Part shown: positions 1,839-56,888 of the stretch, one piece after another
How the letters are laid out: each line of letters starts with the position of its first letter
How positions within the stretch are numbered: the stretch's first letter is position 1
Assembly: GCA_026388095.1 (NCBI GenBank)
Contig: JAPLKL010000069.1
Location: 8,117-72,116 of the forward strand
Source of the DNA: Elusimicrobiota bacterium
GTDB taxonomy: Bacteria > Elusimicrobiota > Elusimicrobia > UBA1565 > UBA9628
DNA length: 64,000 bases
Direction: 5' to 3'
Position numbers and translations under genes: made by a program
The notes under the pieces: generated by a model
Databases searched by the model: none
Told to the model about the DNA's origin: nothing
Seen by the model: only the letters and a program-made list of their open reading frames with translations

Positions 1839-1847
1839 AGCCTCAGC

Positions 1848-3014: not shown

Positions 3015-3042
3015 GATGGGTCTCCTTCGGCATCGGGTCTGG

Positions 3043-6430: not shown

Positions 6431-6434
6431 GGGT

Positions 6435-7670: not shown

Positions 7671-7672
7671 GC

Positions 7673-8566: not shown

Positions 8567-8568
8567 GC

Positions 8569-23789: not shown

Positions 23790-24022
23790 AAAAAAACGCC
23801 GACGCCCAGGCTCTTCCTATTTAAAGGAACACAGCCTCTGGACGGACTCGGCGCGGGCACGAACGGACCGGTCCTTCATGCAATCCGGGCCGGCAAAGGA
23901 GATTTATAACAGGTATCCACTGATTTGTCAAGGCCTTTGTTAAAGGATAGCAATGTTCGGTCGCGCCATGCCAGGCAGGCGGCGACCCATGCCCAGGCGC
24001 AAATATAGTAGAATACTCATCT

Positions 24023-25405: not shown

Positions 25406-25407
25406 CC

Positions 25408-26256: not shown

Positions 26257-26257
26257 C

Positions 26258-27613: not shown

Positions 27614-27623
27614 CTAGGACGAG

Positions 27624-28655
27624 ATGGAAAAACTCAAGGGGGCGCTGGTCGGCTACGGGGCGGTGGCGCACAACGCCCACGCCCCCGCCCTGCGCGGCCG
27701 TTCGGATCTGGCCATCGCCGCGGTCGCGGACGCCGACCCGGAGCGTCTGCGCCTGGCCGAGGAGTCCTTCCCGGGAGCGCGGCCCTACCCCAGCCTCGAG
27801 GCCCTGCTCGAATCCGAGACCAACCTGGATTTCCTGGACTTGGCCACGCCGCCCTGGCTGCACGGCCGGCAGGTCCTCAGCGCGCTGGAGCGGGGCCTGC
27901 ACGTGCTCTGCGAGAAGCCCCTGACCCTCGACACCACCGAATTCCGGCGCGTCGCCGAGACCGCGCGGCGCCGGGACCGCGCGGTCTTCACCGTGCACAA
28001 CTGGGGCTGCGCGCCCATCTGGGCCAAGGCCGCGGCCCTCTCGGCCGAGGGCGCCTTGGGCGAGATCCGCCACGCCGAGCTCCACGCCGTGCGCACCAAG
28101 CCCTCCGTCGCCGCGGGCCCCGGCGACTGGCGCACCGACGCCAACTTGGCCGGAGGCGGCATCCTGGTGGACCACGGCTGGCACAACCTCTACCTCCTCA
28201 AGCGGGTCCTCTTCCCCGGCCTGGACGCGCCCGGGCCGGTGGAGACAGCGGCATTCTTCCATCGGCCGGCGCCCACGGCGGCGGAGAGCGAGGCCACCGT
28301 CTTCTACCGCTTCCCCGCGGCCACGGCCCTGCTGCATCTGACCTGGCGGGGGACCTTCCGCTCCAACTGGGCCGTCTTCCATGGCACGCGGGCCGTCCTG
28401 GAGATGCGCGACGACCATCTGCTGCTCCGCCAGGGAGCGCAGGAAGAGCAGCGCCTCGATTTCCCCGAGAAGCTCTCCGCCGGCTCGGCCCACCCGGAGT
28501 GGTTCGCCTCCCTCTTGCCCGACTTCTGCGCCGAGATGCGGGACCCCGCGCGGCGCGGCCGCAACCTCGCGGAGGCCGGCTTCGTGCTGGACCTCATCCG
28601 CCGGGCCTACGACGGCGGGCGCAAGCCACGCGCCGCGGAGGCGGTCCATCCGTAA
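27624..28655 (+). CDS. Gfo/Idh/MocA-family NAD(P)-dependent oxidoreductase (inositol 2-dehydrogenase-like)
   Basis: An N-terminal Rossmann fold (GYGAVAHNAHAPAL), the central EKP motif (LCEKPL) and the GFO_IDH_MocA C-terminal domain are present. Confidence 0.8.
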   Translation: MEKLKGALVGYGAVAHNAHAPALRGRSDLAIAAVADADPERLRLAEESFPGARPYPSLEALLESETNLDFLDLATPPWLHGRQVLSALERGLHVLCEKPLTLDTTEFRRVAETARRRDRAVFTVHNWGCAPIWAKAAALSAEGALGEIRHAELHAVRTKPSVAAGPGDWRTDANLAGGGILVDHGWHNLYLLKRVLFPGLDAPGPVETAAFFHRPAPTAAESEATVFYRFPAATALLHLTWRGTFRSNWAVFHGTRAVLEMRDDHLLLRQGAQEEQRLDFPEKLSAGSAHPEWFASLLPDFCAEMRDPARRGRNLAEAGFVLDLIRRAYDGGRKPRAAEAVHP

Positions 28656-28668
28656 GGGCGCTTCGGCC

Positions 28669-29829
28669 ATGCTCAGCGACGCGATCCTCTGGGTCTCCAA
28701 TCCGTCCCTCCTGTCCCACCGTGTCGGCGGCATGACCGTCCTGGAGCGCCAACTCCACACCCTGAGCCGGGCCGGCCTGCGCCGAGTGTGGGTCTCCGCC
28801 GATCAGGTGACGAAAGCCGCCGCCGGGCTAAGGCGCCCCGCGGGCCTGGAGGTCTTCTGGATCAGCCGCAGTATCGGCGGCGCGGCGCCGCAGTGCCAGC
28901 CTCCCTATGTGGTGGTTTCCGGCAGCCATTTCCTCCGGGTCGAGACCCTCGCCCACATCGTCTGCCATCCGGGCGACGCCCACACGGCCTACCTCGACGA
29001 CCGCCAAGCCTCCGTGGTCCAAGTCGTGCCGACCCGGGACGACGCCGCCGCACCCTGCCGCAACCAGCCGCTGCCAGCGGGCGCCAGCATATCCCTGCAG
29101 CATCCCATCCAGGACGCCCTCACCGTGGAATGGCTGTTGGCCACGGGGACCAAGAGCCAGGACGGGTTCATGGCGCGCCACTTCGATCGCCACATCTCTT
29201 TGGGCATCTCCCGCTCGCTTCTGGAGACCGCGATCTCGCCCAACATGATGACGATCCTGAGCAGCCTGGTCGGCCTGCTGGGAACGTCTTTCTTCCTCTT
29301 CCACACCTGGGGCGCCCACATGGCCGGCGCGGCCCTGGTCTGGCTGCACTCCGTCCTGGACGGCTGCGACGGCGAGCTCGCCCGCATCCGCTTCCAGGAG
29401 AGCCCCCTGGGCGCGGACATCGACTTCTGGGGCGACAACCTCGTGCACGTGTCCCTGTTCGGCTGCCTGGCCGTGGGCTTCGCCCGCTCCGACCAGAGCG
29501 TCCTGCCGCTGCTGGCCGGGCTGACCGCCACGGTCGGCATACTCGGCTCCGCGAGTCTGGTGTACCGCCAGCGGCTGGCGCGCCGCCAGCTCCCTGCGGA
29601 ATCACCGCCGAAGAACCTCGACTCTTTGCTCGCGCGCGTGGAGACCATCCTGGAGCAGCGCGATTTCATATACGTGCTCCTGGTCCTGGCCTATTTCAAT
29701 CCCGACCTGTGCTGCACTTACGCTTTCATGTGGGCCGGCGCCGTCGGGGTCACGCTCTTCTTCGCCATGACGCTCTACATCGGGAGGCTCAATCGTGAAC
29801 AAGCATTCCAACCGCATCGCGCCGGCTAA
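28669..29829 (+). CDS. CDP-alcohol phosphatidyltransferase (DIPPS/PIPS-like) with an N-terminal degenerate IPCT-like nucleotidyltransferase-fold domain
   Basis: Start MLSDAIL was chosen within the track ORF and has an AAGGG RBS. DGCDGELARIRFQESPLGADIDFWGD fits the CDP-OH_P_transf motif D-G-x2-A-R-x8-G-x3-D-x3-D. Several TM helices follow. The N-terminal ~150 aa lacks the GxGTRL motif. Confidence 0.75.
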   Translation: MLSDAILWVSNPSLLSHRVGGMTVLERQLHTLSRAGLRRVWVSADQVTKAAAGLRRPAGLEVFWISRSIGGAAPQCQPPYVVVSGSHFLRVETLAHIVCHPGDAHTAYLDDRQASVVQVVPTRDDAAAPCRNQPLPAGASISLQHPIQDALTVEWLLATGTKSQDGFMARHFDRHISLGISRSLLETAISPNMMTILSSLVGLLGTSFFLFHTWGAHMAGAALVWLHSVLDGCDGELARIRFQESPLGADIDFWGDNLVHVSLFGCLAVGFARSDQSVLPLLAGLTATVGILGSASLVYRQRLARRQLPAESPPKNLDSLLARVETILEQRDFIYVLLVLAYFNPDLCCTYAFMWAGAVGVTLFFAMTLYIGRLNREQAFQPHRAG

Positions 29830-31201
29830 AGGCCGGCTCGGAGTCCTGCTGCCCGGGATGGGCGCCATCACCAGCACCGTCATCGCCGGCCTTCTGCTGG
29901 CCCGCAAAGGCAAGGGCCGCCTCATCGGGTCCCTGACCCAGATGCAGACCATCCGCCTGGGCAAGCGCTACGAGCACCGCGCCCCCCTCATCAAGGATTT
30001 CATCCCCCTGGCCCAACTCTCCGACCTGGTCTTCGGCGGCTGGGACCTGTTCCCGGACAACACCTACGAGGCCGCCCTGAAGGCCGGCGTCCTGGACCGC
30101 TGGACCATCGACCCCGTGCGCAAGGATATGGAAGCCATCCGTCCCATGACCGCGGTCTGGGACCCCGCCTACCTGAAGAACCTGAAGGCCACCCATTTCA
30201 AGAAGGGCCGCTCCAAGTGGGACCTGGCCCAGCAGCTCATGGCCGACATCCAGAAGTTCCAGAAGAGCACCGGGGCGACGCGCCTGGTCATGCTCTGGTG
30301 CGGCTCGACCGAGATCCTGCCGGCCCCGTCGCCGGTCCACGAGTCCCTCGCCGCCTTCGAGAAGGGCTTGCGCGAGAGCCATCCGGCCATCCCGCCCTCC
30401 ATGATCTACGCCTACGCCGCGCTCAAGCTGGGCATCCCCTACGGCAACGGGGCGCCCAACCTCTCCGTGGACGTCCCGGCCATGACGGAGCTCGCCGAGA
30501 AGACCGGCACGCCCATCATGGGCAAGGACTTCAAGACCGGGCAGACCCTCATGAAGACCACCATCGCGCCCATGCTCAAGGCCCGGATGCTGGCCTTGCG
30601 CGGCTGGTATTCGACGAACATCCTGGGCAACCGCGACGGCGAGGTGCTCGACGACCCGGGCTCCTTCAAGACCAAGGAGAAGAGCAAGATGTCGGTGCTG
30701 GACACGATCCTGGAGCCCAAGCTCTACCCGCAGCTCTACGGCAAGTTCCACCACAAGGTGCGCATCGACTATTACCCGCCGCGAGGCGACGCCAAGGAAG
30801 GCTGGGACAACATCGACATCGCGGGCTGGCTGGACATGCCCATGCAGATCAAGATCAACTTCCTCTGCCGGGACAGCATACTCGCCGCCCCCATCGTCCT
30901 GGACCTGGTCCTGTTCCTGGACTTGGCCAAACGCGCCGGCCTCAAGGGCATCCAGGAGTGGCTGTCCTTCTACTTCAAGTCCCCCCAGTGCCGGCCGGAC
31001 TTGGACCCCGAGCACGATATCTTCATCCAGCACCTCAAGCTCAAGAATACGCTGCGCCTGCTGATGGATGAGGAGGTCCTCGACCACTCCGGCCTGGACT
31101 ACTACGACCCGGAAAAGGGCCTGCCCACGCCCGCGCCGGCCGCCAAGCCTCTGCCCAAGAGCGCGGCCAAGGCCAAGCCGCGGTCACCGGTCCTGCACTA
31201 G
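29795..31201 (+). CDS. ino1: myo-Inositol-1-phosphate synthase (MIPS)
   Basis: An N-terminal Rossmann segment (LGVLLPGMGAITSTV), NGAPNLS and STNILGNRDG(E) match the conserved MIPS catalytic region. The start may lie 21 codons downstream. Confidence 0.85.
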   Translation: MNKHSNRIAPAKGRLGVLLPGMGAITSTVIAGLLLARKGKGRLIGSLTQMQTIRLGKRYEHRAPLIKDFIPLAQLSDLVFGGWDLFPDNTYEAALKAGVLDRWTIDPVRKDMEAIRPMTAVWDPAYLKNLKATHFKKGRSKWDLAQQLMADIQKFQKSTGATRLVMLWCGSTEILPAPSPVHESLAAFEKGLRESHPAIPPSMIYAYAALKLGIPYGNGAPNLSVDVPAMTELAEKTGTPIMGKDFKTGQTLMKTTIAPMLKARMLALRGWYSTNILGNRDGEVLDDPGSFKTKEKSKMSVLDTILEPKLYPQLYGKFHHKVRIDYYPPRGDAKEGWDNIDIAGWLDMPMQIKINFLCRDSILAAPIVLDLVLFLDLAKRAGLKGIQEWLSFYFKSPQCRPDLDPEHDIFIQHLKLKNTLRLLMDEEVLDHSGLDYYDPEKGLPTPAPAAKPLPKSAAKAKPRSPVLH

Positions 31202-45880: not shown

Positions 45881-45921
45881 CCCCAAAAAGGAACCGCCCA
45901 GACACTCGCGTGTCTGGGCGG
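45881..45921 (-). terminator. Rho-independent terminator downstream of the csp gene (minus strand)
   Basis: CCGCCCAGACAC-tcgc-GTGTCTGGGCGG is a perfect 12-bp stem. On the minus strand it is followed by TTCCTTTTTGGGGG. Confidence 0.7.
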
Positions 45922-45940
45922 TCTTTAGGTCGTCGGAAGC

Positions 45941-46144
45941 TTAGAGCTTCTTGACGTTCGCGGCGCGCGGTCCCTTGTCGGACTGCTGCACGTCGAACTC
46001 GACGGCCTGATTCTCGGCCAAAGTCTTGAACCCTTCACCGGTGATGGCCGTGTGATGGACGAACAGATCTTTGGAGCCGTCATCCGGCGTGATGAAGCCG
46101 AAGCCCTTCTGGTCATTGAACCACTTCACTTTCCCTGTAGCCAT
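45941..46144 (-). CDS. csp: Cold-shock protein (CspA family; cold-shock OB-fold domain)
   Basis: [34 protein letters not shown]... contains the RNP1 (KGFGFI) and RNP2 (VFVHF-like) motifs. An AT-rich 5' region and a GAGGAA RBS lie upstream. Confidence 0.9.
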
Positions 46145-46232
46145 TATGTTGGTATTCCTCTTTAATTACTACTTTGCTCACATACGACTGTGGCGAGGGC
46201 AACGTCTACCCTTGTCTATATTATAGCAAGAA

Positions 46233-47537
46233 TCACCGTGGAAATATAGGCTCCTTGGCCCGCGGCGCCGCCAGCCGGTCCGCCAGCCGCTCCACGAAGC
46301 CCAGCATCCCATTGAACCCCAAGAACGGCCGCTCGAAGAGCGCGTGGCTCCGGTAGCTCGGGAAGCCGAACTCCAGGATCGGGAAGCGCAGGCCGTGGAA
46401 GTCCTGCTCGCACCAACAGGTCACGAAGAGGTCCAGCGGCTCCTGCGTAAGCTTGCGCACCGCGGGGGAGGAGGAGCGCGGCTCGCAGAGCACCGGGACC
46501 GGGCCGGCCTGGTCCGGCAGATGCTGGGCGCGGCCCCTGACGATGGCTCCCGCCACGGTCATGCCCAGGTCCTCGGCGATGTCCCGGAACCCCTCGAACA
46601 GGTAGGGATCGCCCATGAAGGCGGTCCGGCGGTTCAGGAAGTACTGCGGGATGATCCATTGCAGCCGCGGGATGACCCGGGCCAGCTCCGCCGCGATGAA
46701 GGCCTCGGCCTCCTTGAGCCGGCCCGCGGCCTTGCCCACATCGCGCAGGAAGCGCTCGGTCTTGGGCAGGCCGAAAGGCAGCTCCGTCTCCACCAGAGCC
46801 GCGCCCGTGGCCCGGGCCAGGCTGCGCGCCGCGGCCCGGCCGTAGGGCAAAGAGACGATGAGGTCCGCCTCGGCCACGCGCCGCAAAGCCGCGGCCGGCT
46901 CGCCGCCCAGCCAGACCGAGACCGTCTCCAGGCCCAATGCCGCCAGCATCCGGCGCAGTTCGGCGAGGTTGCCGAAGTGGTCGGCCTCGTTGCGGTCCAT
47001 GAAATAGCCCACGAGCGCGGCTTTCTTGAGCGGCCCTTTCTGGGCCTTGACCCGGCGCTTGCCCCCCAGGTCCAGACCGCGGGCCAGGGCGTTGAGCACC
47101 TGGCCGTAGCCGTCGAGCCAATCGCCGATGAGCGAATCCGGCGCGATGTCGATGGCGGGCTTGGAGAGCTTGCCCGCCAAGGACCGGATGACCCGGCCGT
47201 AGTCCACGCCCGTGATGGAGCACATGGGCAAGGCCGTGACCAGCACCAAGCCCGACTCCTTGAGGCCGTCCACGGTCAGGATGTGGCGCCGGATGATCTC
47301 GTCATGCTCCTTGACCACGCCGCGCGAGCAGACGTTGGTGAAGGCCACGCGGTGGCGGCCGCTGATGCGCAGGAGCGTCGAGCCCAGGTCGTGTCGGCCG
47401 TGGATGAAGTGGGACTTGTAGAGCACGCAGTCCGGGCCGTCCACCAGGATGTAGGCGTCCGGGATCGCGTTGACAGCGAGATAGACCCCCATGAGGGTCG
47501 GGAAGTTCATCGGCTTGCCGTGGCCTTCGGACATCAT
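46233..47537 (-). CDS. Nitrogenase component 1-type (NifD/K/E/N, BchN/B-like) oxidoreductase-family protein
   Basis: 434 aa. Start MMSEGHG overlaps the fusion gene stop as ATGA. Three-domain Rossmann-like architecture with the Oxidored_nitro-like segment ...ILVDGPDCVLYKSHFIHGRHD. This is a family-level call. Confidence 0.6.
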   Translation of the reverse strand: MMSEGHGKPMNFPTLMGVYLAVNAIPDAYILVDGPDCVLYKSHFIHGRHDLGSTLLRISGRHRVAFTNVCSRGVVKEHDEIIRRHILTVDGLKESGLVLVTALPMCSITGVDYGRVIRSLAGKLSKPAIDIAPDSLIGDWLDGYGQVLNALARGLDLGGKRRVKAQKGPLKKAALVGYFMDRNEADHFGNLAELRRMLAALGLETVSVWLGGEPAAALRRVAEADLIVSLPYGRAAARSLARATGAALVETELPFGLPKTERFLRDVGKAAGRLKEAEAFIAAELARVIPRLQWIIPQYFLNRRTAFMGDPYLFEGFRDIAEDLGMTVAGAIVRGRAQHLPDQAGPVPVLCEPRSSSPAVRKLTQEPLDLFVTCWCEQDFHGLRFPILEFGFPSYRSHALFERPFLGFNGMLGFVERLADRLAAPRAKEPIFPR

Positions 47538-49936
47538 TGCCCCCCCATGAAGCGCGCATAGCGCCGCGGCAGCGGCCAGCGGCAGATGCCGTCGAGCTTC
47601 CGCACGCTGCGCACGGCCCCGGCCAGGCCCATCTCGAAGCAGTCCAAGGAGAACTGCGCCTTGCCGGCCTTGGCCAGGCGGGAATCGTAGGTGTACTCGG
47701 AGTAGACCGCCTCGAAGCGGCCCTCGCGCAGCAGGCGGGCAAGCTCCTCGGGCGTCTGGAAGAAGCTCAGCCCCGGGGCCTTCTTCTTGGCCTCCCCGAA
47801 GCAGAGAATCTCCACGCCGAAGCCCATCTCCCGCAGCAGGCGCAAGAGCGGCACGCCCCAGGTCTGCGCCGGGTCGGTCAGGCGCCGCATGTGGAAGCCG
47901 TCGACTACGAAAGCGACGCTGCGGCCGCGCGCCCGGCGGCGCGCCGCGTCCCAGCCCGCGGACAGCTCCTTGGCCGCCCTGGCCAGCGCCGGCTTGGCCC
48001 CGCGCTTGAGGCCCAGTTCCCCAGCCACCGCCCGCACCCAGGCCTGGGTCCCCTCCCAGCCGTAAGGCGCCTCGGGCCGCAGGGTCTTGATGGGCAGGTG
48101 CTCGAAGAACTCCTGGTAGGTCTTGGCATAGGCGCCGTTGGGGTAGAGGACCTGGACCTCGGCAGAGAGATAGGACTGCACCGCAGCCAGGCTCAATGAC
48201 GGCATGACCCGGACGTTGATCTCGACGCCCGCATCCCTCAGCAAGGCGGACAGCTCCTGCAGGGCTTGGCCTTCGGGGAAGCCCACCAGGTTGACGCAGC
48301 GGCTGCGGCGCTGCACCTTGGCGAAGGACGGGTCTTCCTGGAGCCGGCGGAACAGGGCCAGGCACACGTCGAAGTCCTTGCAGCTGGTATGGTTGAGGTA
48401 GACGATGGGGATCTTGGTGCGCTTCTGCCAGCGCGCCACCACGGCCTCCGCGTCGTCGCCGATCACGGTCGGGATGCAGGTCGAGTGCACCACCACCGCC
48501 TCGGCGCGGCCCTCCGCGTGCGCCACGGCCGCGGCCAGGGCCTCGTCGAGCTTGCGTCCGCCGCCATGGATGACGTCGAGGTCGCGGAGGTTGGTCATCA
48601 CGTTCCAGCGGCCCTCGCCCTCGTCGCCCCGAGGCGCCAGGGCGCCTCGGTCCCGCAGGCGCTTGCCTTTCTCCTCTCGCCTGCGGGGCCCGGGGTCTTC
48701 CCGAGGGCCTTCATCATGCCGCTCCACGAAAGGCGGCCAGGGGAACTTGAAGAAGGCCGGCAGGCTGGCATCATTGTAGCTGGGCGTGGCGTAGGAGCAT
48801 TCCAGGTCCTGGTGCCAGACGTTGACCACGGGAGTCGAGCCCTCCAGGCACATGCGCACGTTGCGGCGGGGCTCGAAGTCGCAGAAGAAGTTGCGCCACT
48901 GGTCCGCCGCCCCCCAGACCTGGGAGTTGGGGCCCGGGTCATTGTCCCAGAGCGAGCCGTGCCAGGCCGCGAGGTCCTGCTCCGAAGGCCCCCTGGGGCC
49001 GGGGTCAGGACCGGGGCCAGGATCGGGGCCGGGCCCGGGATCAGGGCCAGGGCCAGGGCCAGGCTGAGCCGGAGCCGCCGATGAGACGACGGCCGGCGCA
49101 GGCTCGACGCCGGATGAGACGAATCCATCGCGGGAGAGCTCATGGAAGCGCTCGTCCTGGAAAGGGGTCGGGACCTTGGCCTTGGCCCGGTCGAAGTCCC
49201 AGAGCCGCTGCGCCAGAGCCAGGACCTTCTTGGAGAACTCGCAGCGCGGCGCGTGCTCCGCCGCGGTCACGCGCCGCCGCTCCGCCTCCCGCACCGCGGC
49301 CTCGCGCGGCAGGAAGGCCAGGACCTTGGTCCCTAGGCCCGCGGCGAAGCGTTCCACCACAGCGCGGTCCGCTCCCGGGTCGCGCAGGTTGCCGACCAGG
49401 CCGCAGAGCGTGATGCCGTTGGCGCTGTAGTTGCGCACCGCCCGGGCGATGTTGTTGACCGCGTAGAGGGACATCAGCTCCTCGGAGGTCACGATGACCA
49501 CCTTGTCCGCGAAGCCCTGGCGCAGGGGCGCGGCGAAGCCGCCGCAGACCACGTCCCCGAGCACGTCGAAGAGCGCCACGTCGTGGCGCCCCTCGCTGAG
49601 GATGCCGGCGCCGTTGAGGAGCTCGATCATCCGGGAGATGCCCCGACCCGCGCAGCCGATGCCCGGCTCCGGCCCCCCGGCCTCCACGCAGTCCACGCCC
49701 AGCCGGCCGCGCACCAGCAGGCCGGAGAGGTCCCGGGCGTTGGCGTCCATGAAGGCCGACTGCTCCACCACGGTCTTGATGGGGCGGCCCTCGGTCAGGG
49801 CCACGGTGGTGTCGTGCTTGGGGTCGCAGCCCACCAGCAGAACCTTCTTGCCCTGCCGGGCGTAGACGGCGGCAAGGTTGGCGGCCAGCGTGGACTTGCC
49901 GATGCCGCCTTTCCCGAAGATCGCTATGCGCTGCAT
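47534..49936 (-). CDS. Fusion protein: NifH-like Fe-protein ATPase + (PGPGPD)n linker + nitrogenase component 1-like domain
   Basis: The N-terminal NifH/BchL/CfbC-like domain has MQRIAIFGKGGIGKST (P-loop), CDPKHD, EPGIGCAGRGI and LGDVVCGGFA (both 4Fe-4S Cys ligands). The C-terminal domain contains ...HSTCIPTVIGDD..., the STCxxExIGDD signature of NifD/K/E/N and BchN/B. The ATG abuts the upstream radical-SAM stop. Confidence 0.75.
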   Translation of the reverse strand: MQRIAIFGKGGIGKSTLAANLAAVYARQGKKVLLVGCDPKHDTTVALTEGRPIKTVVEQSAFMDANARDLSGLLVRGRLGVDCVEAGGPEPGIGCAGRGISRMIELLNGAGILSEGRHDVALFDVLGDVVCGGFAAPLRQGFADKVVIVTSEELMSLYAVNNIARAVRNYSANGITLCGLVGNLRDPGADRAVVERFAAGLGTKVLAFLPREAAVREAERRRVTAAEHAPRCEFSKKVLALAQRLWDFDRAKAKVPTPFQDERFHELSRDGFVSSGVEPAPAVVSSAAPAQPGPGPGPDPGPGPDPGPGPDPGPRGPSEQDLAAWHGSLWDNDPGPNSQVWGAADQWRNFFCDFEPRRNVRMCLEGSTPVVNVWHQDLECSYATPSYNDASLPAFFKFPWPPFVERHDEGPREDPGPRRREEKGKRLRDRGALAPRGDEGEGRWNVMTNLRDLDVIHGGGRKLDEALAAAVAHAEGRAEAVVVHSTCIPTVIGDDAEAVVARWQKRTKIPIVYLNHTSCKDFDVCLALFRRLQEDPSFAKVQRRSRCVNLVGFPEGQALQELSALLRDAGVEINVRVMPSLSLAAVQSYLSAEVQVLYPNGAYAKTYQEFFEHLPIKTLRPEAPYGWEGTQAWVRAVAGELGLKRGAKPALARAAKELSAGWDAARRRARGRSVAFVVDGFHMRRLTDPAQTWGVPLLRLLREMGFGVEILCFGEAKKKAPGLSFFQTPEELARLLREGRFEAVYSEYTYDSRLAKAGKAQFSLDCFEMGLAGAVRSVRKLDGICRWPLPRRYARFMGGQ
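48990..49066. repeat. GC-rich imperfect tandem repeat (~18-nt units) encoding the (PGPGPD)4 linker of the fusion protein
   Basis: ggggccggggtcaggaccggggccaggatcggggccgggcccgggatcagggccagggccagggcc on the plus strand, inside the fusion CDS. Confidence 0.7.
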
Positions 49937-50862
49937 CAGATGTTCCCCTTGAGATTGGTCTTCTTCTTGAGTACAGGGTGGAACTCGTCCCAGCCGAACA
50001 GGTCGGGATACTCCCGCCAGGGCCCCTCGCAGGCCTGGAAGTGCGCGCACTCCGGGCAGCGGGGCCCCTTGGTCTTACCCTCGGTCCGGCGGGTCTTGGT
50101 GTAGTCCTCGATGATGGTGTCGGCGTCGAATATCTTGGTGGCCGGGATGATGCGCTCGGCCACATGGTCCTCGTAGCCCGACATGAAGCAGTAGGGGATG
50201 GCCTCGGTCATGACGCGCCGCCCGGCGGCGATGCCCACGTCGAGCCCCTTCTTGACCCAGGGCTCGATGAGCGTCTTGCGGGCGGTGAGCCATTCCTTGT
50301 TCTGGCCCGCGCGGCCGGTCATGTGCATGAAGGCGAATTGGAACTGCTCCACGCCGAGGGAGACGAGCAGACGGGCCACCTCCGGCAGATCGCGGTAGTT
50401 GACCTTGGTGACCACCGTGTTGGTGATCAAGCGCGCCCCGGCCTTCTTGACGTTGCGCATCCCGGCCGCGGTCTGCAGGAAGCTGCCCGGGACGCCGGTC
50501 AGGAAGTCGTGGAGCTCGGGCCGCGAGCCGTGCAGGGCCGGCCCGAACTCGCTGACCCCGGCCGCGACGAGTTTCTTGACCAGCCCGGCGTAGCAGAGGG
50601 TGCGGCCGTTGGTCTGGATCTGGACGTCCTCGTAGCCCAGGCCGCGGGCGTGGCGCACCGCCTCGATGAGGCCCTTGTGCAGGGAGGGCTCGCCTCCGGT
50701 GAAGACCACTCCCGTGGCCCCGGAGCGGCGGCCCTCGGCCAGGGCCCGGCGCAGCTCGGCCCCGGACTTGGCCGGCAGCTTCTCGCGCTTGTCCCCCTGC
50801 ACGCAGAACCGGCAGAGGTTGTTGCAGGCGAAGCCCACCTTCAAGTCGATGCGCTCGGTCAA
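49936..50862 (-). CDS. Radical SAM protein with C-terminal Cys-rich (SPASM/twitch-like) region, paralogue 3
   Basis: CNNLCRFC (CxxxCxxC), GGEPSLH and a C-terminal CPECAHFQACEGPW are present. The proposed TTG start at 50862 overlaps the upstream stop as TTGA and has a GAGGG RBS. The alternative ATG at 50982 would overlap the upstream gene by 124 nt. Confidence 0.55.
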   Translation of the reverse strand: MTERIDLKVGFACNNLCRFCVQGDKREKLPAKSGAELRRALAEGRRSGATGVVFTGGEPSLHKGLIEAVRHARGLGYEDVQIQTNGRTLCYAGLVKKLVAAGVSEFGPALHGSRPELHDFLTGVPGSFLQTAAGMRNVKKAGARLITNTVVTKVNYRDLPEVARLLVSLGVEQFQFAFMHMTGRAGQNKEWLTARKTLIEPWVKKGLDVGIAAGRRVMTEAIPYCFMSGYEDHVAERIIPATKIFDADTIIEDYTKTRRTEGKTKGPRCPECAHFQACEGPWREYPDLFGWDEFHPVLKKKTNLKGNI

Positions 50863-52082
50863 GACAGGGCCCTCGCGGCTCCGGATTTGAACAGGTCCCA
50901 GGCCCGTTCGCCATAGGGGATCAGCAGCGAGACCAGGTTGCCCCGGCGCGCCACGGTGTACAGGGAGCCGAGGAATATCCATAACGCAAAGGGGATCGTC
51001 TGATAAAAGGTGTATTCCGCCGGGGCCGGCCGGGAAGCCAGCCAGGTCTTGAGCGCGTCCACCTCATCCTGCGTGAGTCCGTCCGAGAAGCGGCCCCCCA
51101 GTTTTTCGGAGAGGTCCTGGTCTTTCTGAAGGGTCCTCCAGGTCTCGTCTGAAAGGACCACTCCGGGCTGGAGGTGCTCGGGCTTGAGCTCCCGCAGGCT
51201 CTCCAGCTCGATGTACCAATGGAAGACCAGGCGCGCCACGGACAGGAACACGCCGAAATTGAACGTCATCTTCAGAGCCCTCACGATGATCGCCAGGATG
51301 TCCCAATGGCCGTAGACCGCGCCCCCGGACATCGCGGCCGCGATGCAGGCCAGCGCCAGATAACCCACCCGGCGGTCGCGCAGGACCATCGTGATCTTGC
51401 CCCAGGCCACGAACATGAGCAGGAAGAGCACCACGTTGCCGAAGGGTCCCCAGGCCAGCTTTTGCGAATAGCGCTGCGAGGTCCCCGTGAGATAGAACAG
51501 GGCGTAGAGGTTCACCACCAAGGTGAGGTACTGGTAGCGGTAGGGCCAAGCCTCGCGGACGCGGACCTCGATGACATCGGCCTTGGCCTTGAGCCAGACC
51601 TTCCAGTCGATCCTCCGCAGCCCGGACGTCCGCAGGAGCAGGTGCCCGACCGTCTCCGCGGCGAAGACCAAGCCGGCCGGCACGAAGATGTTGACCAGCA
51701 GGAGCATGAACAGCAGCAGAGGATAGCCGGGGATGTTGGGGTTGATGAGCGCGACCAGGAAGGCGAAGAGGGTGAAGAGCTTGGCGTCGCCGGCGGGCCA
51801 GATGGCCAGGCGCCACATGGTGAAGGCGGCCGTGAAGCTCAGGGCCATGTGGATGAGCATCTTGGAATAATAGCGCCAGGGCATGTAATGCTCCCCGATG
51901 CGCCCCAGGCGGACGCCCTGGTGGCCCAGGATGGAGTTCCAGAGCAAGAAGGCCAGCCCGGCCGCGCCGGCGAGCAGCCCCAGGACGATCCAGCTGTTGC
52001 GGACCCGGCGCTGCGACCAGTCCTCGTAGGAGACCACCAGGCCCAAGGCCAGGAAAAGGTAGTAGTAGAACTCCGCGATCAC
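50859..52082 (-). CDS. Polytopic membrane protein with N-terminal A24 prepilin-peptidase-like domain
   Basis: A GTG start at 52082 overlaps the upstream radical-SAM stop as GTGA. The track ORF extends further upstream into a low-complexity region that is not real. SYEDWSQRRVRNSWIVLGLL is similar to the A24 motif D-x4-R-x-[IV]-P-N. IWPAGDAKLF is a GGGDVKL-like second-Asp motif. More than 6 TM helices and a ~150-aa soluble C-terminus follow. Confidence 0.6.
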   Translation of the reverse strand: MIAEFYYYLFLALGLVVSYEDWSQRRVRNSWIVLGLLAGAAGLAFLLWNSILGHQGVRLGRIGEHYMPWRYYSKMLIHMALSFTAAFTMWRLAIWPAGDAKLFTLFAFLVALINPNIPGYPLLLFMLLLVNIFVPAGLVFAAETVGHLLLRTSGLRRIDWKVWLKAKADVIEVRVREAWPYRYQYLTLVVNLYALFYLTGTSQRYSQKLAWGPFGNVVLFLLMFVAWGKITMVLRDRRVGYLALACIAAAMSGGAVYGHWDILAIIVRALKMTFNFGVFLSVARLVFHWYIELESLRELKPEHLQPGVVLSDETWRTLQKDQDLSEKLGGRFSDGLTQDEVDALKTWLASRPAPAEYTFYQTIPFALWIFLGSLYTVARRGNLVSLLIPYGERAWDLFKSGAARALS

Positions 52083-53017
52083 GAGTCCTCCCGGACCCGG
52101 CGCGCGACCCAAGCCGGGTCCGTGAAGACGGGGCAGAGTTCCGCCTCCGAGTAGTAGACGCCGAGCTGATAGAGCCCCGCGCAGAGGGCCTGGAGCCGGC
52201 ACTGCGGGCAGCGCTCGCCTTTCTTGTAGGTCCAGGCGCTGCGGTCCTGGACGCGCAGGCCCTTCTCGTCCAGGAAATAGATCCGGCGGCCCTCGTTCTT
52301 GACGAGCTTGCGCGTCTCGGTGGAGCGGTAGGGGAACTCGGACATGAAGCACAAGGGGACCCGCTCCACCCGGAAGGACCGCCCGGTGGCGGCGAGCCAG
52401 GTCATGGCCTTGTGCAGTTCGACCTCGAAGTCCCGCAGACGGGGCACGAGCTCGTCCTTGGCCGCGCTCTCGTTCATCAGGGGGTCGAGATTATTCCAGA
52501 CGAAGTGCCGCACCTGCGGGGCCTGTTCGACGACCCAGCGCACCAGCTCGCTCAGATGCCCGGCGTTGGCCTTGCTGATCACCGTGTTGATGTCCACGCG
52601 GATGCCGAGCTTGCCGGCATGACGCAGGGAGCGCCGGATGTTCTCAAAAGAGTCGGGGTTGGAGGAGAGCCGGGCCTGCACCTCGGGACGGCAGGAGTAG
52701 ATCGAGATGTGCATGTGCGCCAGCCCCGCGCGCGCCAAAGAGCGGAGGTAGCGCGGGTCAGCGGTCTTCTGCCCGTTGGTGATCAGCCGCGGGATGAGCC
52801 TGCGCTCGACCGCGTAGGCCACCAGCCGCGGCAGTTGGGGGAACATGGTGGGCTCGCCGCCGGTCAGGATCACGCCCGAGGCGCCGTCCTTGGCGAAGGA
52901 ATCGATCCAGGTCGCGGCCTCCTTCCAGGAGATGACCCGGCCGTTGGCCGGGTTGGAGCAGAAGAGGCACTTCTGGTTGCAGACCCGGGAGACCTGGAGG
53001 TAGGCGAGCTCAGCCAT
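52079..53017 (-). CDS. Radical SAM protein with C-terminal Cys cluster, paralogue 2
   Basis: CNQKCLFC, GGEPTMFP and a C-terminal CPQCRLQALCAG are present. The start overlaps the upstream gene by 8 nt. Confidence 0.75.
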   Translation of the reverse strand: MAELAYLQVSRVCNQKCLFCSNPANGRVISWKEAATWIDSFAKDGASGVILTGGEPTMFPQLPRLVAYAVERRLIPRLITNGQKTADPRYLRSLARAGLAHMHISIYSCRPEVQARLSSNPDSFENIRRSLRHAGKLGIRVDINTVISKANAGHLSELVRWVVEQAPQVRHFVWNNLDPLMNESAAKDELVPRLRDFEVELHKAMTWLAATGRSFRVERVPLCFMSEFPYRSTETRKLVKNEGRRIYFLDEKGLRVQDRSAWTYKKGERCPQCRLQALCAGLYQLGVYYSEAELCPVFTDPAWVARRVREDS

Positions 53018-54143
53018 GCTTCCTCTTGACGGGCCGCAGCCCTGAGAACCCCTTCTCGCGGACCTCGCGCACGCTCATCCCGTCGCAGCGCGCGGCCCGG
53101 GCGCAGCGCGCGCAGGCCGAGCCCTTGGCGAAGAACCGCGCCCGGACGAAGAACTCGGCGAATCCGACGATGTCGGGCTTGCTCCCCAGCCGGAAGACCT
53201 CGCCGGTCCCCTTCTGCCCCAGGCACAGCGGCCCGACCTTGGCCGGCAGGCGCCCGGCCCGGCGCAGCCGCGCGATGTCCGGACAGAAATCGCGCATGAA
53301 GCACTGCGGGCAGGACGCCCCCAAGCAGCTGGGCGCCTTGCCGCCGCCGAGGTAGCGCCCCAGCAGGCGGCGGCGGCCGCGCACCTCGTCGAGGATCTTC
53401 TCCGGGGACTGGATGAGGGCCTCGAAGCCCTCCAGGTAGTCCGCGCGCAGCCGGTTGGTGAAGATGTGCAGGTCCGGCCGCCGCGCCAGCCTCAGCGCCC
53501 GGTGCAGGCGCGCCAGGTCCCGGGGGTCGGAGAAGTCGCAGAAGAGGTCCTCGCGGTTGCGCCAGGCGTCTCCGAACGGGACCAAGGCCAGGAGGTCGAA
53601 CTCGCGCACGCCCACCTTGATGTAGAACTCGAGGAGCCGGCGCAGGACCGGCAGGTTGAGGCGGTTGATGACCACGTCCACGCTCACGATGAGCCCGGGC
53701 ACGGCCAGGGCCGCGCGCAGGCCGGCCAAGGCCTGGACGAAGGAGCCCGGGACCCGGGTGAGCCGGTCGTGCAGGGCCGCGGTGTGGCCGTGCAGAGAGA
53801 AGGTCACTTCATCGAGCCCGGCCGCGACCGCCGCCTGGAGGAAATCCGGATAGCAGAAGCGGCGCCCGTTGGTGATGGTCTGGATGTGGGTATAGCCGAG
53901 CTCCTTGGCCAGGCCCACCGTCTTCAGGTAGCCGGGGTGGAGGGTGGGCTCGCCGCCGCTCAGGACCACGCGCCGCAGTCCCTGGCGCCGGCCGCGGGCC
54001 AGCTCCCGGCGCAGGGTGTCCCAGGGCACGGTGTCGCCGTCCTGGGCCCCGCGGTCGTGGCAGAAGAGGCAGCGCTGGTTGCAGCACCGGGTGAGCCTCA
54101 CCCAATGCCGCTTCTCGGCCACGCCCTGCCCTGTGTCAGCCAC
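53010..54143 (-). CDS. Radical SAM protein with C-terminal Cys-rich SPASM-like region, paralogue 1
   Basis: CCNQRCLFC, GGEPTLHP, and a C-terminal CLGASCPQCFMRDFCPD plus CARCARAARC are present. Confidence 0.75.
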   Translation of the reverse strand: MADTGQGVAEKRHWVRLTRCCNQRCLFCHDRGAQDGDTVPWDTLRRELARGRRQGLRRVVLSGGEPTLHPGYLKTVGLAKELGYTHIQTITNGRRFCYPDFLQAAVAAGLDEVTFSLHGHTAALHDRLTRVPGSFVQALAGLRAALAVPGLIVSVDVVINRLNLPVLRRLLEFYIKVGVREFDLLALVPFGDAWRNREDLFCDFSDPRDLARLHRALRLARRPDLHIFTNRLRADYLEGFEALIQSPEKILDEVRGRRRLLGRYLGGGKAPSCLGASCPQCFMRDFCPDIARLRRAGRLPAKVGPLCLGQKGTGEVFRLGSKPDIVGFAEFFVRARFFAKGSACARCARAARCDGMSVREVREKGFSGLRPVKRKHG

Positions 54144-54154
54144 CGTGATCGCGC

Positions 54155-55093
54155 CTACCAGGCCCCGTAGAAACGCCGGTCATCCATGGGAGTGGGGACC
54201 GGGCAGTCCTCCTTGCGCACGGCCAGGATCTTGGCCGCCAGGGACTTGATGCTCTTGGCGAAGGGCGACTTGGGCGCGCGTTCGACCACGGTCTTGTGCC
54301 GGGCGAACTCGGCTTCGCGCACGGCCAGGTCGCGCGGCACGTACTCCAGGATGCGGGTCCCGATGATCCGGGCGAAGTGCTCGAGCCGCTTGCGGTCGAC
54401 CTTGCCGTCCTTGAGATTGGCCACCAGGCCCGCGAGGTAGACGCCGTTGGAGGCGTAGGTGCGCACGGACTTGGCGATGTTGTTGGCGGCGTAGAGGGCC
54501 ATGAACTCCTCGGAGACCACGATGACGATCTTCTCCGCGAAGCCCTTGCGCAGGGGCGCGGCGAAGCCGCCGCAGACCACGTCGCCGAGCACGTCGAAGA
54601 CCGCGATGTCATAGCCTCCCCCCCCGAGGACCCCGAGGTCCTGGAAGGCCTCCAGCATCAGCGAGATCCCCCGGCCCGCGCAGCCGACCCCGGGCTCCGG
54701 GCCGCCGGCCTCGGCGCAGTCGATGCCCAGCCGGCCCTTGACCAGGAGGTCGGCGGCCTTGAGCTCGCCGCGGTCGCGGTTGCCGAAGGTCCGGGCGTGC
54801 TTCTCCATGAAGGTCTCGATGAGGCTGCCGTCGACGAGTCCGACCGTGGAGTCGTGCTTGGGGTCGCAGCCGATGTGGAGGACCTTGCGCTTCTGCAGGG
54901 CGTAGACGGTGCTCAAGTTCGCCGCGATGGTGGACTTGCCGATGCCGCCCTTGCCGAAGATGACGATGTTCTGCGTCTTGGCCCTGCGTTTATTCTCGAT
55001 ATTATAATGATACCAATCTGCGGACAGGCGCGGACAGGGCCGCGCGGGGAGGCTCTTTACCGGGATGGCGCAAATTGCCACAATACGGCCCAT
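54155..55093 (-). CDS. NifH/BchL/CfbC-family Fe-protein-like ATPase (standalone). The start codon is uncertain.
   Basis: IVIFGKGGIGKST (P-loop), CDPKHD, EPGVGCAGRGI and LGDVVCGGFA (both Fe-S Cys ligands) are present. An ATG at 55093 has an AGGAG RBS but would overlap the divergent M2 peptidase gene. No canonical start lies close to the P-loop. Confidence 0.65.
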   Translation of the reverse strand: MGRIVAICAIPVKSLPARPCPRLSADWYHYNIENKRRAKTQNIVIFGKGGIGKSTIAANLSTVYALQKRKVLHIGCDPKHDSTVGLVDGSLIETFMEKHARTFGNRDRGELKAADLLVKGRLGIDCAEAGGPEPGVGCAGRGISLMLEAFQDLGVLGGGGYDIAVFDVLGDVVCGGFAAPLRKGFAEKIVIVVSEEFMALYAANNIAKSVRTYASNGVYLAGLVANLKDGKVDRKRLEHFARIIGTRILEYVPRDLAVREAEFARHKTVVERAPKSPFAKSIKSLAAKILAVRKEDCPVPTPMDDRRFYGAW

Positions 55094-56888
55094 GAGAACA
55101 AAACTCCTGCTCGCCGTCTTTTTGGCCCTCCCGGCCGCCGCCCGCGCCGCCACCTTGCAGGAGCAAGCCGCGCAGTTCGTCGCGGACTATTCCCATCTTT
55201 ACCAAGGCGTCTACACCGCGGCCCAGGAAGCCTCCTGGAAAGCCTCCACGGACGTCACCCCCGAGCACGAGGGCCTGCGCACCGGCGCCAACCAGGCCTT
55301 GGCGTCGTTGACCGGCAGCCCCTACATCATCGCCCAGGCCCGGGAATTCCTCAAGCGCAAAGCCGAGCTCGCCCCGCAGACCGTGCGCGAGCTCCAGCGC
55401 ATCTGGTGGATGGCGGCCGAGGACCCCGGCGACATCCCCGAGACCGTGGCCAAGCGCGTGGAGGCGGAGAGCAAGCGGTCCAGCGCCATGGACTCCTTCT
55501 CGTTCTGCGTCGAACGCTCCAGCGACGGCAAGGCCTGCGCCAAGCCCACCACGCCCAACGAGATCGACAACATCCTGGCCTCGACCGCCACGGACGCGGC
55601 CACTCACCTCAAGTACTGGCTCGCCTCCAAGGAGATCGGCCCCGCCCTCAAGCCCGGCCTGGTCAACCTGCGCGGCTTGCGCAACGAGGTGGCCCGCCAC
55701 TTCGACTACCCCTCCTATTTCGACCTCCAGGTGGCCTGGTACGACATGACCACGCCGGAGATGATGGCCATGCTCGAAAGCGTGCTCAAGGACATCCAGC
55801 CCCTCTACGAGCAGGTCCACTGCTACGCCAAGTACGAGCTGGCCAAGCGCTACCATGAGCCCGCGCCCAAAGGCCCCATCCCCGCCCAATGGCTGGGCAA
55901 CCGCTGGGCCCAGGGCTGGCCCGGTCTCGTGGAGGGCGTGGACCTCGACCCCTACTTCAAGGGCCGCACGCCCGAGTGGATCGTCAAGCAGGGCGAAGCC
56001 TTCTACACCTCGATGGGCCTGGCCCCCCTGCCCGACAACTTCTGGCAGAACTCCGACCTCTACCCCGTGGCCCAGAGCCTGCGCAAGAAGAACACCCACG
56101 CCTCGGCCTGGCACATCGACCTCGACCACAACGTGCGCTCCTTGCAGTCCGTCGAGCCCAACGCGGAGTGGTGGGCCACCGTGCACCACGAGCTCGGCCA
56201 CATCTTCTACTTCCTGGCCTATGCGCGGCCCGAGGTGCCCATCCTCCTGCGCGACGGGGCCATGCGCGCCTTCCACGAGGGCTTCGGCGACATGGCCGCC
56301 ATCGCGGCCAACCAGGCGCCTTACCTGCGCCAGGTCGGGGTCCTGCCCAAGGACGCCAAGATCGACGAGAACCGCTGGCTGCTCGCCGAGGCCATGGATT
56401 CCATAGTCTTTCTGCCTTTCTCCGCCGGCACCATGACGCATTGGGAGCGGGACCTCTACGCGGGGGACATGCCTCCCGAACAGTGGAACGCGCGCTGGTG
56501 GCAGTACGCCCGCCAGTACCAGGGCATCGCGCCCCCCGAAACCCGCGGCGAGGAGCTCTGCGACGCCTGCACCAAGACCCACATCAACGACAACCCCGCC
56601 TACTACAACACCTACGCCATCGGCACCGTGTTCAAATACCAGCTGCACGACCACATCTGCCGCAATATCCTGCACCAGGACCCCCGCCGCTGCGACTACT
56701 ACGGCAGCAAGGAAGTCGGCGACTTTCTAAAGGACCTGCTCTCCAAAGGAGCGACGGAGGATTGGCGCGCGCTCATGCGCGAGAAGACCGGCGCGGACCT
56801 CTCCAGCAAGGCCATGATGGACTACTTCAGCCCGCTGATGGACTATCTCAAGAAGGAGAACAAAGGCCGCGCCTGCGGCTGGAAGTAG
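55065..56888 (+). CDS. Peptidase family M2 (angiotensin-converting-enzyme-like peptidyl-dipeptidase), secreted
   Basis: A signal peptide MRTKLLLAVFLALPAAARA is followed by HHELGH...HEGFGD, the M2 HExxH + E zinc-binding signature (compare ACE HHEMGH..HEAIGD). A GGAGG sequence lies upstream of the ATG at 55065. Confidence 0.8.
   Translation: MAQIATIRPMRTKLLLAVFLALPAAARAATLQEQAAQFVADYSHLYQGVYTAAQEASWKASTDVTPEHEGLRTGANQALASLTGSPYIIAQAREFLKRKAELAPQTVRELQRIWWMAAEDPGDIPETVAKRVEAESKRSSAMDSFSFCVERSSDGKACAKPTTPNEIDNILASTATDAATHLKYWLASKEIGPALKPGLVNLRGLRNEVARHFDYPSYFDLQVAWYDMTTPEMMAMLESVLKDIQPLYEQVHCYAKYELAKRYHEPAPKGPIPAQWLGNRWAQGWPGLVEGVDLDPYFKGRTPEWIVKQGEAFYTSMGLAPLPDNFWQNSDLYPVAQSLRKKNTHASAWHIDLDHNVRSLQSVEPNAEWWATVHHELGHIFYFLAYARPEVPILLRDGAMRAFHEGFGDMAAIAANQAPYLRQVGVLPKDAKIDENRWLLAEAMDSIVFLPFSAGTMTHWERDLYAGDMPPEQWNARWWQYARQYQGIAPPETRGEELCDACTKTHINDNPAYYNTYAIGTVFKYQLHDHICRNILHQDPRRCDYYGSKEVGDFLKDLLSKGATEDWRALMREKTGADLSSKAMMDYFSPLMDYLKKENKGRACGWK

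Follow-up and report, generated by a model that had tools for sequence, protein, structure and literature searches.

The stretch analysed here, called the window, comprises 64,000 nucleotides of an Elusimicrobiota bacterium (assembly GCA_026388095.1, contig JAPLKL010000069.1, positions 8,117 to 72,116 of the forward strand) with a G+C content of ~68%. On its minus strand lies a block of seven co-directional, mostly overlapping genes, g1 to g7, which encode a standalone NifH-like Fe protein, three radical S-adenosylmethionine (rSAM) proteins, a polytopic membrane protein with a peptidase fold, a NifH::NflD fusion and an NflK-like protein (Table 1). The seven genes and the domains first assigned to them in an initial annotation made from the sequence alone were borne out by matches to PF00142, PF00148 and PF04055, the motifs quoted there were all found at the expected sites in g1, g2, g3, g5 and g6, and a third-position GC of 0.79-0.95 marks the true reading frames. 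It is highly probable that the locus combines Group VI nitrogenase-like (NFL) proteins with HxsC-like rSAM proteins and an A24-type protease.

Table 1. Features of the seven-gene block and its surroundings (positions in the window)
Feature	Position	Strand	Evidence or remark
g1: standalone NifH-like (NflH) Fe-protein ATPase	54155..55003	-	PF00142 E 2e-77
g1 P-loop	54932..54955	-	GKGGIGKS
g1 cluster Cys motifs	54665..54685 and 54560..54580	-	GCAGRGI and VVCGGFA
g1/g2 junction			TAG, 11-nt spacer, GTG (no overlap)
g2: rSAM protein, HxsC-like paralog, 377 aa	53010..54143	-	PF04055 E 3e-19
g2 CX3CX2C motif	54060..54083	-	CNQRCLFC
g2/g3 junction			8-nt overlap
g3: rSAM protein, HxsC-like paralog, 312 aa	52079..53017	-	PF04055 E 9e-23
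g3/g4 junction			GTGA
g4: polytopic membrane protein, GxGD/A24 aspartyl-peptidase fold, 407 aa	50859..52082	-	
g4/g5 junction			TTGA
g5: rSAM protein, HxsC4-like, 308 aa	49936..50862	-	PF04055 E 8e-21; TTG start within the TTGA overlap
g5/g6 junction			TGATG, 1-nt overlap
g6: NifH::NflD fusion, 800 aa	47534..49936	-	PF00142 E 1e-80; PF00148 E 1e-27
g6 Fe-protein domain	~49127-49936	-	
g6 Pro/Gly-rich linker	~48932-49126	-	
g6 linker run	48995..49063	-	Pro/Gly/Asp-rich
g6 NflD (component-1) domain	47537..48931	-	
g6/g7 junction			ATGA
g7: NflK-like component-1 protein, 434 aa	46233..47537	-	PF00148 E 5e-38
Cold-shock protein gene, 67 aa	45941..46144	-	88 nt downstream of g7
cspA-thermoregulator (Rfam), below threshold	45891..46291	-	39.9 bits vs 78, E 1.4e-7
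Intrinsic terminator after the cold-shock gene	45892..45923	-	
M2 peptidase gene	55092..56888	+	PF01401 E 2e-108
Gene run with myo-inositol-1-phosphate synthase	23951..31201	+	

The seven genes had initially been described as one translationally coupled operon in which every gene is joined to the next by an overlap. The overlaps hold for g2 to g7, while the g1 stop codon is separated from the g2 start by a short spacer; as g1 is only close to g2 and all other junctions overlap, six of the seven genes are taken to be translationally coupled. A promoter and terminator scan placed no terminator-like site at the gene junctions, three such sites inside the g3/g4 coding sequence are within chance expectation, and an Rfam scan revealed no riboswitch upstream of or inside the cluster. 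What did not hold is the indivisibility of the unit. In a close relative (locus L003) two unrelated genes, one of the translation-GTPase family (PF00009 GTP_EFTU with an RF3 C-terminal domain) and one for a methyltransferase, are inserted between the rSAM/A24 block and the fusion gene, and the cluster is therefore better seen as two modules than as a single seven-gene unit.

Both g1 and g6 contain the motifs GKGGIGKS, GCAGRGI and VVCGGFA, which are invariant across 27 homologues of the fusion. By these motifs, g1 and the N-terminal domain of g6 are two Fe-protein-type ATPases, each with a P-loop and two cysteines predicted to bridge a [4Fe-4S] cluster. As paralogs they are distinct and conserved; their mutual identity is 57%, and their orthologues in relatives are 80-93% (g1) and 71-87% (fusion NifH domain) identical. 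Among NCBIfam models, CfbC and NifH score highest for both; the g1 scores against the respective cut-offs are 268/402 for CfbC, 266/394 for NifH, 190/345 for BchL and 175/331 for BchX. Against protein sequences from the PDB, g1 scores ~200 bits with NifH and 132-142 bits with BchL/ChlL, and it reaches 301 bits with the standalone NifH of a related locus (L001), whose fusion is protein P0063 of genome GWA2_69_24. The component-1 proteins fall far under the cut-offs of all NifD/K/E/N and BchN/B/Y/Z models, the best model for the C-terminal domain of g6 being NifE at 60 bits. The early view of the cluster as unlike any characterised Nif, Bch or Cfb system is thus sustained in the sense that none of its proteins reaches the curated cut-off of a characterised family.

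Codon alignment of g1 gave dN/dS values of 0.14-0.18, by which the gene as a whole is under purifying selection. Its closest orthologues, at L003 (93% identical by tblastn) and L011 (90%), begin with ATG-CAG-AAC (MQNIV...); L011 belongs to the nearest GTDB representative, a syntenic Elusimicrobia metagenome-assembled genome (MAG) from groundwater with ~82% nucleotide identity. In the window alone the likely start is an ACG at 54976-54974 (-). Canonical start codons in frame are limited to ATG 55093 and GTG 55153, within reach of the reading frame through the loss of the upstream in-frame stop seen in L003 and L011, and initiation at ATG 55093 would add ~40 amino acids and overlap an M2-peptidase gene. 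The end of the cluster first placed at 55153 is accordingly an open reading frame (ORF) artefact. Possible reasons for the ACG are that translation begins at a non-canonical codon, that selection on g1 is relaxed or that the MAG consensus is wrong at this site. The neighbouring gene, divergent from the cluster, encodes a secreted peptidase of the M2 (angiotensin-converting-enzyme) family, and the extended g1 ORF overlaps with the start region of this gene.

At least 11 related species (loci L013-L031; e.g. L014, positions 1637-6900) carry between g1 and g2 an NflD'-NflK' pair of g1's own. The pair is missing in the window (54143-54155), L003 and L011, where g1 abuts g2, and the adjacency of these two genes in the window lineage therefore results from a deletion. 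In terms of gene order, g1 looks like what is left of a second set of reductase genes.

The invariant cysteines of the 27 fusion homologues are C95 and C131, the Fe-protein ligands, C380 (in DLEC) and C487 (in STC..IGDD, which reads STCIPTVIGDD in g6); a third cysteine of the NflD domain (FFCD) occurs in 15 of them. In the alignment of NflK-like proteins (n=12), C37 is found in ten members and C106 in eight. Because only about four cysteines are conserved in the NflD/NflK pair, a simple [4Fe-4S] site is expected, and the C-terminal domain of g6 together with g7 fits a catalytic pair in the style of DPOR or CfbD, predicted to hold one inter-subunit [4Fe-4S] cluster and not a P-cluster or FeMo-co. 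The pair lacks the full P-cluster cysteine set and the FeMo-co ligands, with the cysteines not matched to NifD numbering by structural alignment. This inventory agrees with the summary of Group VI proteins in a July 2026 Chemical Reviews article (PMC13474568). The Fe-protein domain of g6 is tethered to NflD by a Pro/Gly/Asp-rich run, PGPGPGPDPGPGPDPGPGPDPGP, and the alignment consensus of the fusion homologues is undefined over the linker region. More than 100 full-length homologues of the fusion were found, of which those with a named source are almost all from Elusimicrobia, with a few from Myxococcota such as Pseudenhygromyxa; in relatives, the fusion gene is always followed by the NflK gene.

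The three rSAM proteins match PF04055 at 70-82 bits (cut-off 29.5; E 1e-19 to 1e-23) and carry CX3CX2C motifs of the form CNQRCLFC (g2), CNQKCLFC (g3) and CNNLCRFC (g5), with GGEP(T/S) in each. A SPASM/twitch-like C-terminal extension had been proposed for all three. Its cysteine motif is indeed present, as CxxCx5C in g2 (twice), g3 and g5, but the Pfam SPASM model (PF13186) matches none of them, so that "twitch-like" denotes a cysteine pattern only. The top NCBIfam family of each is HxsC or HxsC4, at 87-157 bits against cut-offs of 268 and 500: HxsC4 and HxsC for g2, both below cut-off, HxsC for g3 (92.5 bits vs 268), and HxsC4 for g5, aligned over positions 13-335 of the 335-position model (157 bits vs 500). 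Models for NirJ and AhbC/D match the three proteins weakly, and PADLOC, in its 2023 library without an Hxs model, returned merely weak generic viperin-type rSAM matches. In one Elusimicrobia species, a g2 orthologue (63% identical) forms the C-terminal part of an in-frame NifH-like::rSAM fusion (L009, positions 7084-9063, equivalent to L032, 1678-3675) annotated as 659 aa within a stop-to-stop ORF of 665 codons.

Embedded among the rSAM genes, g4 encodes an N-terminal A24/GxGD fold of ~160 aa followed by an extension with extra helices and a short region of mixed helix and strand. The catalytic aspartates D21 (with N29) and D99 (G98-D99 in WPAGDAK) are invariant in 28 homologues. The PF01478 score of g4 itself, 19.7 bits, is below the gathering cut-off of 26.5, and 17 of the 28 family members match this model at E<=0.01, the best at 1.7e-7. 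It is very likely that g4 is active as an intramembrane aspartyl peptidase, and a C-terminal extension of ~250 aa is specific to its family. The protein is 100% identical to one from an NCBI Elusimicrobia MAG. For the family, 74 protein-database clusters and 129 matches among GTDB genomes were retrieved, and it was seen in Elusimicrobia alone. Its homologues are always flanked by rSAM genes.

The nitrogenase-like part of the locus had been presented as potentially a new class, an implication that is contradicted by the literature. The Group VI of nitrogenase paralogs was introduced by Meheust et al. (2020) for these same Elusimicrobia lineages; they described an "extensive suite" of adjacent rSAM genes, pointed to homologues in Myxococcales and Gracilibacteria, and put forward tetrapyrrole reduction as the role of the enzymes (10.1101/765248). 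Full-length homologues of g6 are present in three genomes of that study, as P0063 (GWA2_69_24, 46%), P0045 (RBG_16_66_12, 51%) and P0060 (RIFCSPLOWO2_12_FULL_59_9, 44%), and its Supplementary Dataset 3 gives all three a score of 1 in Group VI and of 0 in Groups I-V (10.1101/765248). Since g6 homologues occur in genomes scored for Group VI only, the locus is a member of this already-described, functionally uncharacterised NFL class and not of a new one. The NifH::NflD fusion, the A24-type peptidase and the His-Xaa-Ser context described below are not mentioned in the available text of Meheust et al., nor is the fusion in the searchable part of the supplement. In the Chemical Reviews article, Group VI is still among the uncharacterised groups, its role in the synthesis of tetrapyrrole cofactors being marked as "proposed", and genome context is said to have been of little help for its function (PMC13474568). 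In a metagenome census centred on NFL genes, based on generic NifH motifs that were back-translated, nearly all of the 80 loci listed are ordinary nif-type, and only two, on short contigs (L094 and L095), resemble Group VI fusions.

The context of g4 in relatives is more informative. A census centred on g4 and not on the NFL genes retained 80 species-level loci of the 129 GTDB matches, all from Elusimicrobia MAGs or MAGs labelled only "bacterium", and their 10-kb flanks were examined by tblastn and a repeat regular expression. HxsA, HxsB or HxsD genes lie within this distance of g4 at 50 of the 80 loci (HxsB at 47, HxsD at 32, an HxsA4-type repeat ORF at 19) and NFL genes at 25, about a third. 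Both occur at six loci and neither at 11, mostly on short contigs. Several of the loci with NFL genes alone are cut by the 10-kb flank right where HxsA4 sits in better-covered relatives, and L025 starts inside an HxsA4 gene 2 kb upstream of NifH. HxsB and fusion matches appear to share a contig in six cases.

Individual operons illustrate this arrangement. One encodes HxsB together with an HxsA4 repeat protein (L007; 101 bits vs a cut-off of 55), and another HxsB (467 bits vs 370) with HxsD-like proteins (L008). At L026 a single co-directional array of overlapping or closely spaced ORFs reads HxsD-HxsB-HxsA4-rSAM-NifH-NflD-NflK-g2-g3-g4-g5-rSAM. Two contigs that overlap by 6,897 nt at 100% identity (L091 and L022) together give, on one strand, HxsD-HxsB-HxsA4-B12-binding-six rSAMs-g2-g3-g4-g5-NifH::NflD-NflK-PF00590 methylase. 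As shown by this comparison of gene orders, the g2-g3-g4-g5 block belongs to the core of an expanded Hxs-type operon in which the Group VI NFL genes are recurrent inserts. The earlier suggestion of a maturation system like those of ribosomally synthesized and post-translationally modified peptides is borne out by this context in relatives. In the full-text literature search, no paper naming both His-Xaa-Ser and nitrogenase was found, and the link between Hxs and NFL genes is, as far as the literature searched shows, unreported.

HxsA4 precursor ORFs were located at L007 (626-1060), L026 (2698-3081), L091 (10720-11211) and 16 other loci. The precursors examined are 92-158 aa long, with a Lys-rich N-terminus and a conserved RFLTSEEGK(I/M)LKKDV motif; the leader contains a short hydrophobic segment, AAAVLGIIGAALM (LGIIGAA), followed by DDLLAQ and HTNALHNSG motifs. 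Then come from 7 to ~30 tandem H-x-S repeats, mostly HGS, and a C-terminus of GQW, GSW or RGGWC. In more distant Hxs/A24 operons (L008, 13318-15845; L078, L083, L085 and others), genes for U32-family proteins, a B12-rSAM and an aminotransferase were observed. The U32 family includes Fe-S-dependent hydroxylases, and its presence points to further varied chemistry on the same scaffold.

Taken together, these observations would tie a Group VI NFL system to a conserved block of three HxsC-family rSAM proteins and a dedicated A24-type peptidase, and place it in an Hxs peptide-maturation pathway, a reading that has an even chance of being correct. Because relatives hold the same gene block in operons that mature a His-Xaa-Ser repeat peptide, a peptide may be the substrate in place of the tetrapyrrole of the literature. 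In such a pathway, the rSAM enzymes would install modifications on His or Ser residues of an HxsA4-type peptide, whose gene would in this genome lie outside the window. Powered by ATP hydrolysis, the NFL reductase would then supply low-potential electrons to a step in which the modified peptide is reduced, and the membrane peptidase g4 would cut off the N-terminal leader at membrane insertion or export. By analogy with the HXS system of proteobacteria, the product may act in the cell envelope and possibly, as a speculation, in phage defence. Relatives hold several divergent NflD/K pairs per cluster, which suggests that there may be several reduction steps. A more specific proposal, offered tentatively and with more doubt than confidence, is that Group VI reductases act on ribosomal HxsA4 in an expanded HXS system with the GxGD protease as leader peptidase; they would then be the first nitrogenase-superfamily members to act on a peptide or protein, and might help to build an envelope or antiphage effector.

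Several observations weigh against the peptide-maturation pathway. A six-frame search of the window disclosed no HxS-repeat ORF in any frame, and the precursor-peptide search that had been recommended at the outset, covering HxS repeats, His-rich stretches and pilin- or Flp-type leaders, produced nothing credible there. Likewise, tblastn with HxsA4, HxsB, HxsD, the PF00590 methylase and U32 gave no window match, and among the best 120 HxsB matches none is attributable to the contig carrying the window's g4 or to L003. The rSAM proteins g2, g3 and g5 are far below the HxsC and HxsC4 cut-offs, and the NifH::rSAM fusion is known from a single species. Furthermore, the fusion and NflK genes stand alone, with neither rSAM nor Hxs genes within 10 kb, in Pseudenhygromyxa (L004) and at two loci of one Elusimicrobia MAG (L006 and L092), and the insertion at L003 parts the two modules. 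The pathway as a whole is inferred. At L092, a gene for a Peptidase_C39 of the bacteriocin-processing type (16261-16881, -) and a response regulator gene were observed ~4 kb from the isolated pair.

If the substrate were instead a tetrapyrrole or another small-molecule cofactor, the NFL proteins would reduce a C=C bond in the manner of DPOR, COR and CfbCD, and the rSAM proteins would act like NirJ, AhbC/D or HemN. The closest characterised relatives of the reductase do act on tetrapyrroles, in keeping with CfbC standing beside NifH among the top models, and Meheust et al. report B12-binding and HemN_C rSAM fusions nearby as well as uroporphyrinogen III capacity in some genomes (10.1101/765248). 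The weak matches of the rSAM proteins to NirJ and AhbC/D models also speak for it. This option is nevertheless rather unlikely. No tetrapyrrole, nif, bch or cfb gene was found in the 64 kb of the window, where the initially noted lack of chlorophyll, F430 or methylthio-alkane reductase (Mar) context and of NifB also held; the best families of the rSAM proteins are HxsC and HxsC4 and not NirJ, Ahb or HemN; and the rSAM/A24 block adjoins Hxs genes (repeat peptide, HxsB or HxsD) in 50 of 80 species. Genes of the PF00590 "tetrapyrrole methylase" family in several related clusters might seem to favour a tetrapyrrole, but the single member tested (L007) matches only RsmI-type models, at 65 bits, and no Cob or CysG model. 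Diphthine synthase, a methylase of histidine modified by a radical-SAM enzyme, likewise belongs to PF00590, and the presence of these methylases in relatives need not mean a tetrapyrrole. An intramembrane peptidase, moreover, has no obvious role in tetrapyrrole synthesis.

The two modules could also be unrelated neighbours, namely a peptide-modifying rSAM/A24 block and an independent Group VI reductase (fusion and NflK, with g1 as a leftover) acting on an unrelated substrate. The solitary fusion-NflK loci are what this account would predict, as are the inserted genes of L003, the many g4 loci without NFL genes, and a g1-g2 contiguity that stems from loss of a pair kept in at least 11 relatives. 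Chance adjacency is nonetheless unlikely, for NFL genes lie near g4 at 25 of 80 loci, compared with ~1% for a random 20-kb window in a 3-4 Mb genome (a rough estimate, not computed); within Hxs operons they are interspersed on the same strand, where ORFs overlap or follow closely on one another; in the window, g5 overlaps g6; and NifH is joined in frame to an rSAM protein in one lineage. That same fusion would suit a third account in which the NFL proteins serve the rSAM enzymes, either with a NifH-like protein as ATP-driven reductant of their [4Fe-4S] clusters or with NflD/K as a NifEN-like scaffold on which an Fe-S cofactor is built. In the window and at L003, L011, L040, L080 and L089, an rSAM gene comes directly after a NifH gene, and the NifE score of the g6 C-terminal domain could be read in the same way. 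Such a service role is improbable all the same, given that no NifB, NifX or homocitrate-related gene was found, that NflD has two invariant cysteines and no conserved FeMo-co-type Cys/His pair was identified in it (NifD numbering not being aligned), that the multiple divergent NflD/K pairs of relatives resemble substrate-specific reductases and not one scaffold, and that fusion and NflK persist at standalone loci where an rSAM partner is missing.

The remaining genes of the window are of a housekeeping nature (lpx genes, bamA, pilMNOPQ, relA, rplM/rpsI). Downstream of g7 lies a cold-shock protein gene, in the region of a sub-threshold match to the cspA-thermoregulator and followed by the sole strong intrinsic terminator of the region. 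A cold-shock domain gene is likewise found downstream of the NFL cluster in L003 and L001, and the cluster may therefore read through into it. A separate plus-strand run encodes a HAD/nucleotidyltransferase fusion, a class-III aminotransferase, a GFO/IDH/MocA oxidoreductase, a CDP-alcohol phosphatidyltransferase and myo-inositol-1-phosphate synthase, which suggests synthesis of an inositol-containing lipid or solute.

Group VI is among the nitrogenase-superfamily clades still without a known reaction. The Hxs context points away from the published tetrapyrrole hypothesis, provides HxsA4 as a concrete candidate substrate, and links the NFL enzymes with the HXS antiphage system that was recently characterised. 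It also suggests that the A24-type protease of Elusimicrobia is a dedicated candidate for the unidentified N-terminal processing of Hxs effectors. Were the peptide-maturation pathway to prove true, ATP-driven nitrogenase-type reduction would extend to post-translational peptide chemistry. The operons L026 and L091+L022 are compact enough for heterologous expression.

Several known systems bear comparison with the locus. It was initially likened to the NifH-NifB-NifEN assembly line, with which it shares an Fe protein, rSAM enzymes and NifDK-like proteins. However, domain and family searches of the 64 kb detected no NifB, NifE or NifN, a NifB-type rSAM protein and a NifX domain are lacking, and two invariant cysteines in NflD with one or two in NflK are incompatible with handling of an L-cluster or FeMo-co. 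In view of the missing NifB and cluster ligands, the assembly-line reading was rejected. DPOR (BchL/BchN/BchB) and CfbC/CfbD are closer in principle, being two-component ATP-dependent reductases in which an Fe protein partners NifD/K-like subunits with a predicted simple [4Fe-4S] cluster; the locus differs in scoring below the family cut-offs, in fusing the Fe protein to the D subunit and in its non-tetrapyrrole context. The A24 prepilin and preflagellin peptidases (FlaK, PilD, TadV/CpaA) share with g4 the GxGD fold and both catalytic Asp motifs. In contrast to them, g4 bears its long C-terminal extension, sits among rSAM genes, was seen in Elusimicrobia only and has no pilin-like substrate nearby, as searched in the window. 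With previously described Group VI clusters the agreement extends to the phylum, the NifH paralog with its P-loop and two cluster cysteines, the divergent, cysteine-poor NifD/K proteins, the absence of NifB and the many neighbouring rSAM genes, and nothing essential differs.

The HXS system offers the counterpart for the rSAM/A24 block. In Nature Communications, Li et al. (2026) showed an antiphage function for the Gammaproteobacterial HxsDBCA system of four genes (PMC13128918). Maturation of HxsA by HxsB and HxsC together with HxsD is rSAM-dependent there and proceeds, in E. coli, through non-canonical N-terminal processing and a +8 Da modification on an SHRSS motif (PMC13128918). The matured HxsA reaches the periplasm by export, and there entry of phage DNA is blocked, and the processing protease was not identified (PMC13128918). 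In their survey, 99.7% of HXS systems belong to Pseudomonadota (PMC13128918). The likeness lies in HxsC and HxsC4 as the best families, at scores below cut-off, of g2, g3 and g5, in the operon that the g2-g5 block shares in relatives with HxsD, HxsB and an HxS-repeat protein, and in the coupling, on the HXS side, of rSAM-dependent maturation to N-terminal processing and export. The window differs in that it lacks HxsA, HxsB and HxsD. While the E. coli HxsA combines five repeats with a peptidoglycan-binding domain, the Elusimicrobial HxsA4 has, by its layout and not by domain search, no segment able to hold that domain. The Elusimicrobial version is at the same time greatly expanded, with up to ~10 rSAM proteins, B12-rSAMs, a PF00590 methylase, an A24 peptidase and NFL reductases.

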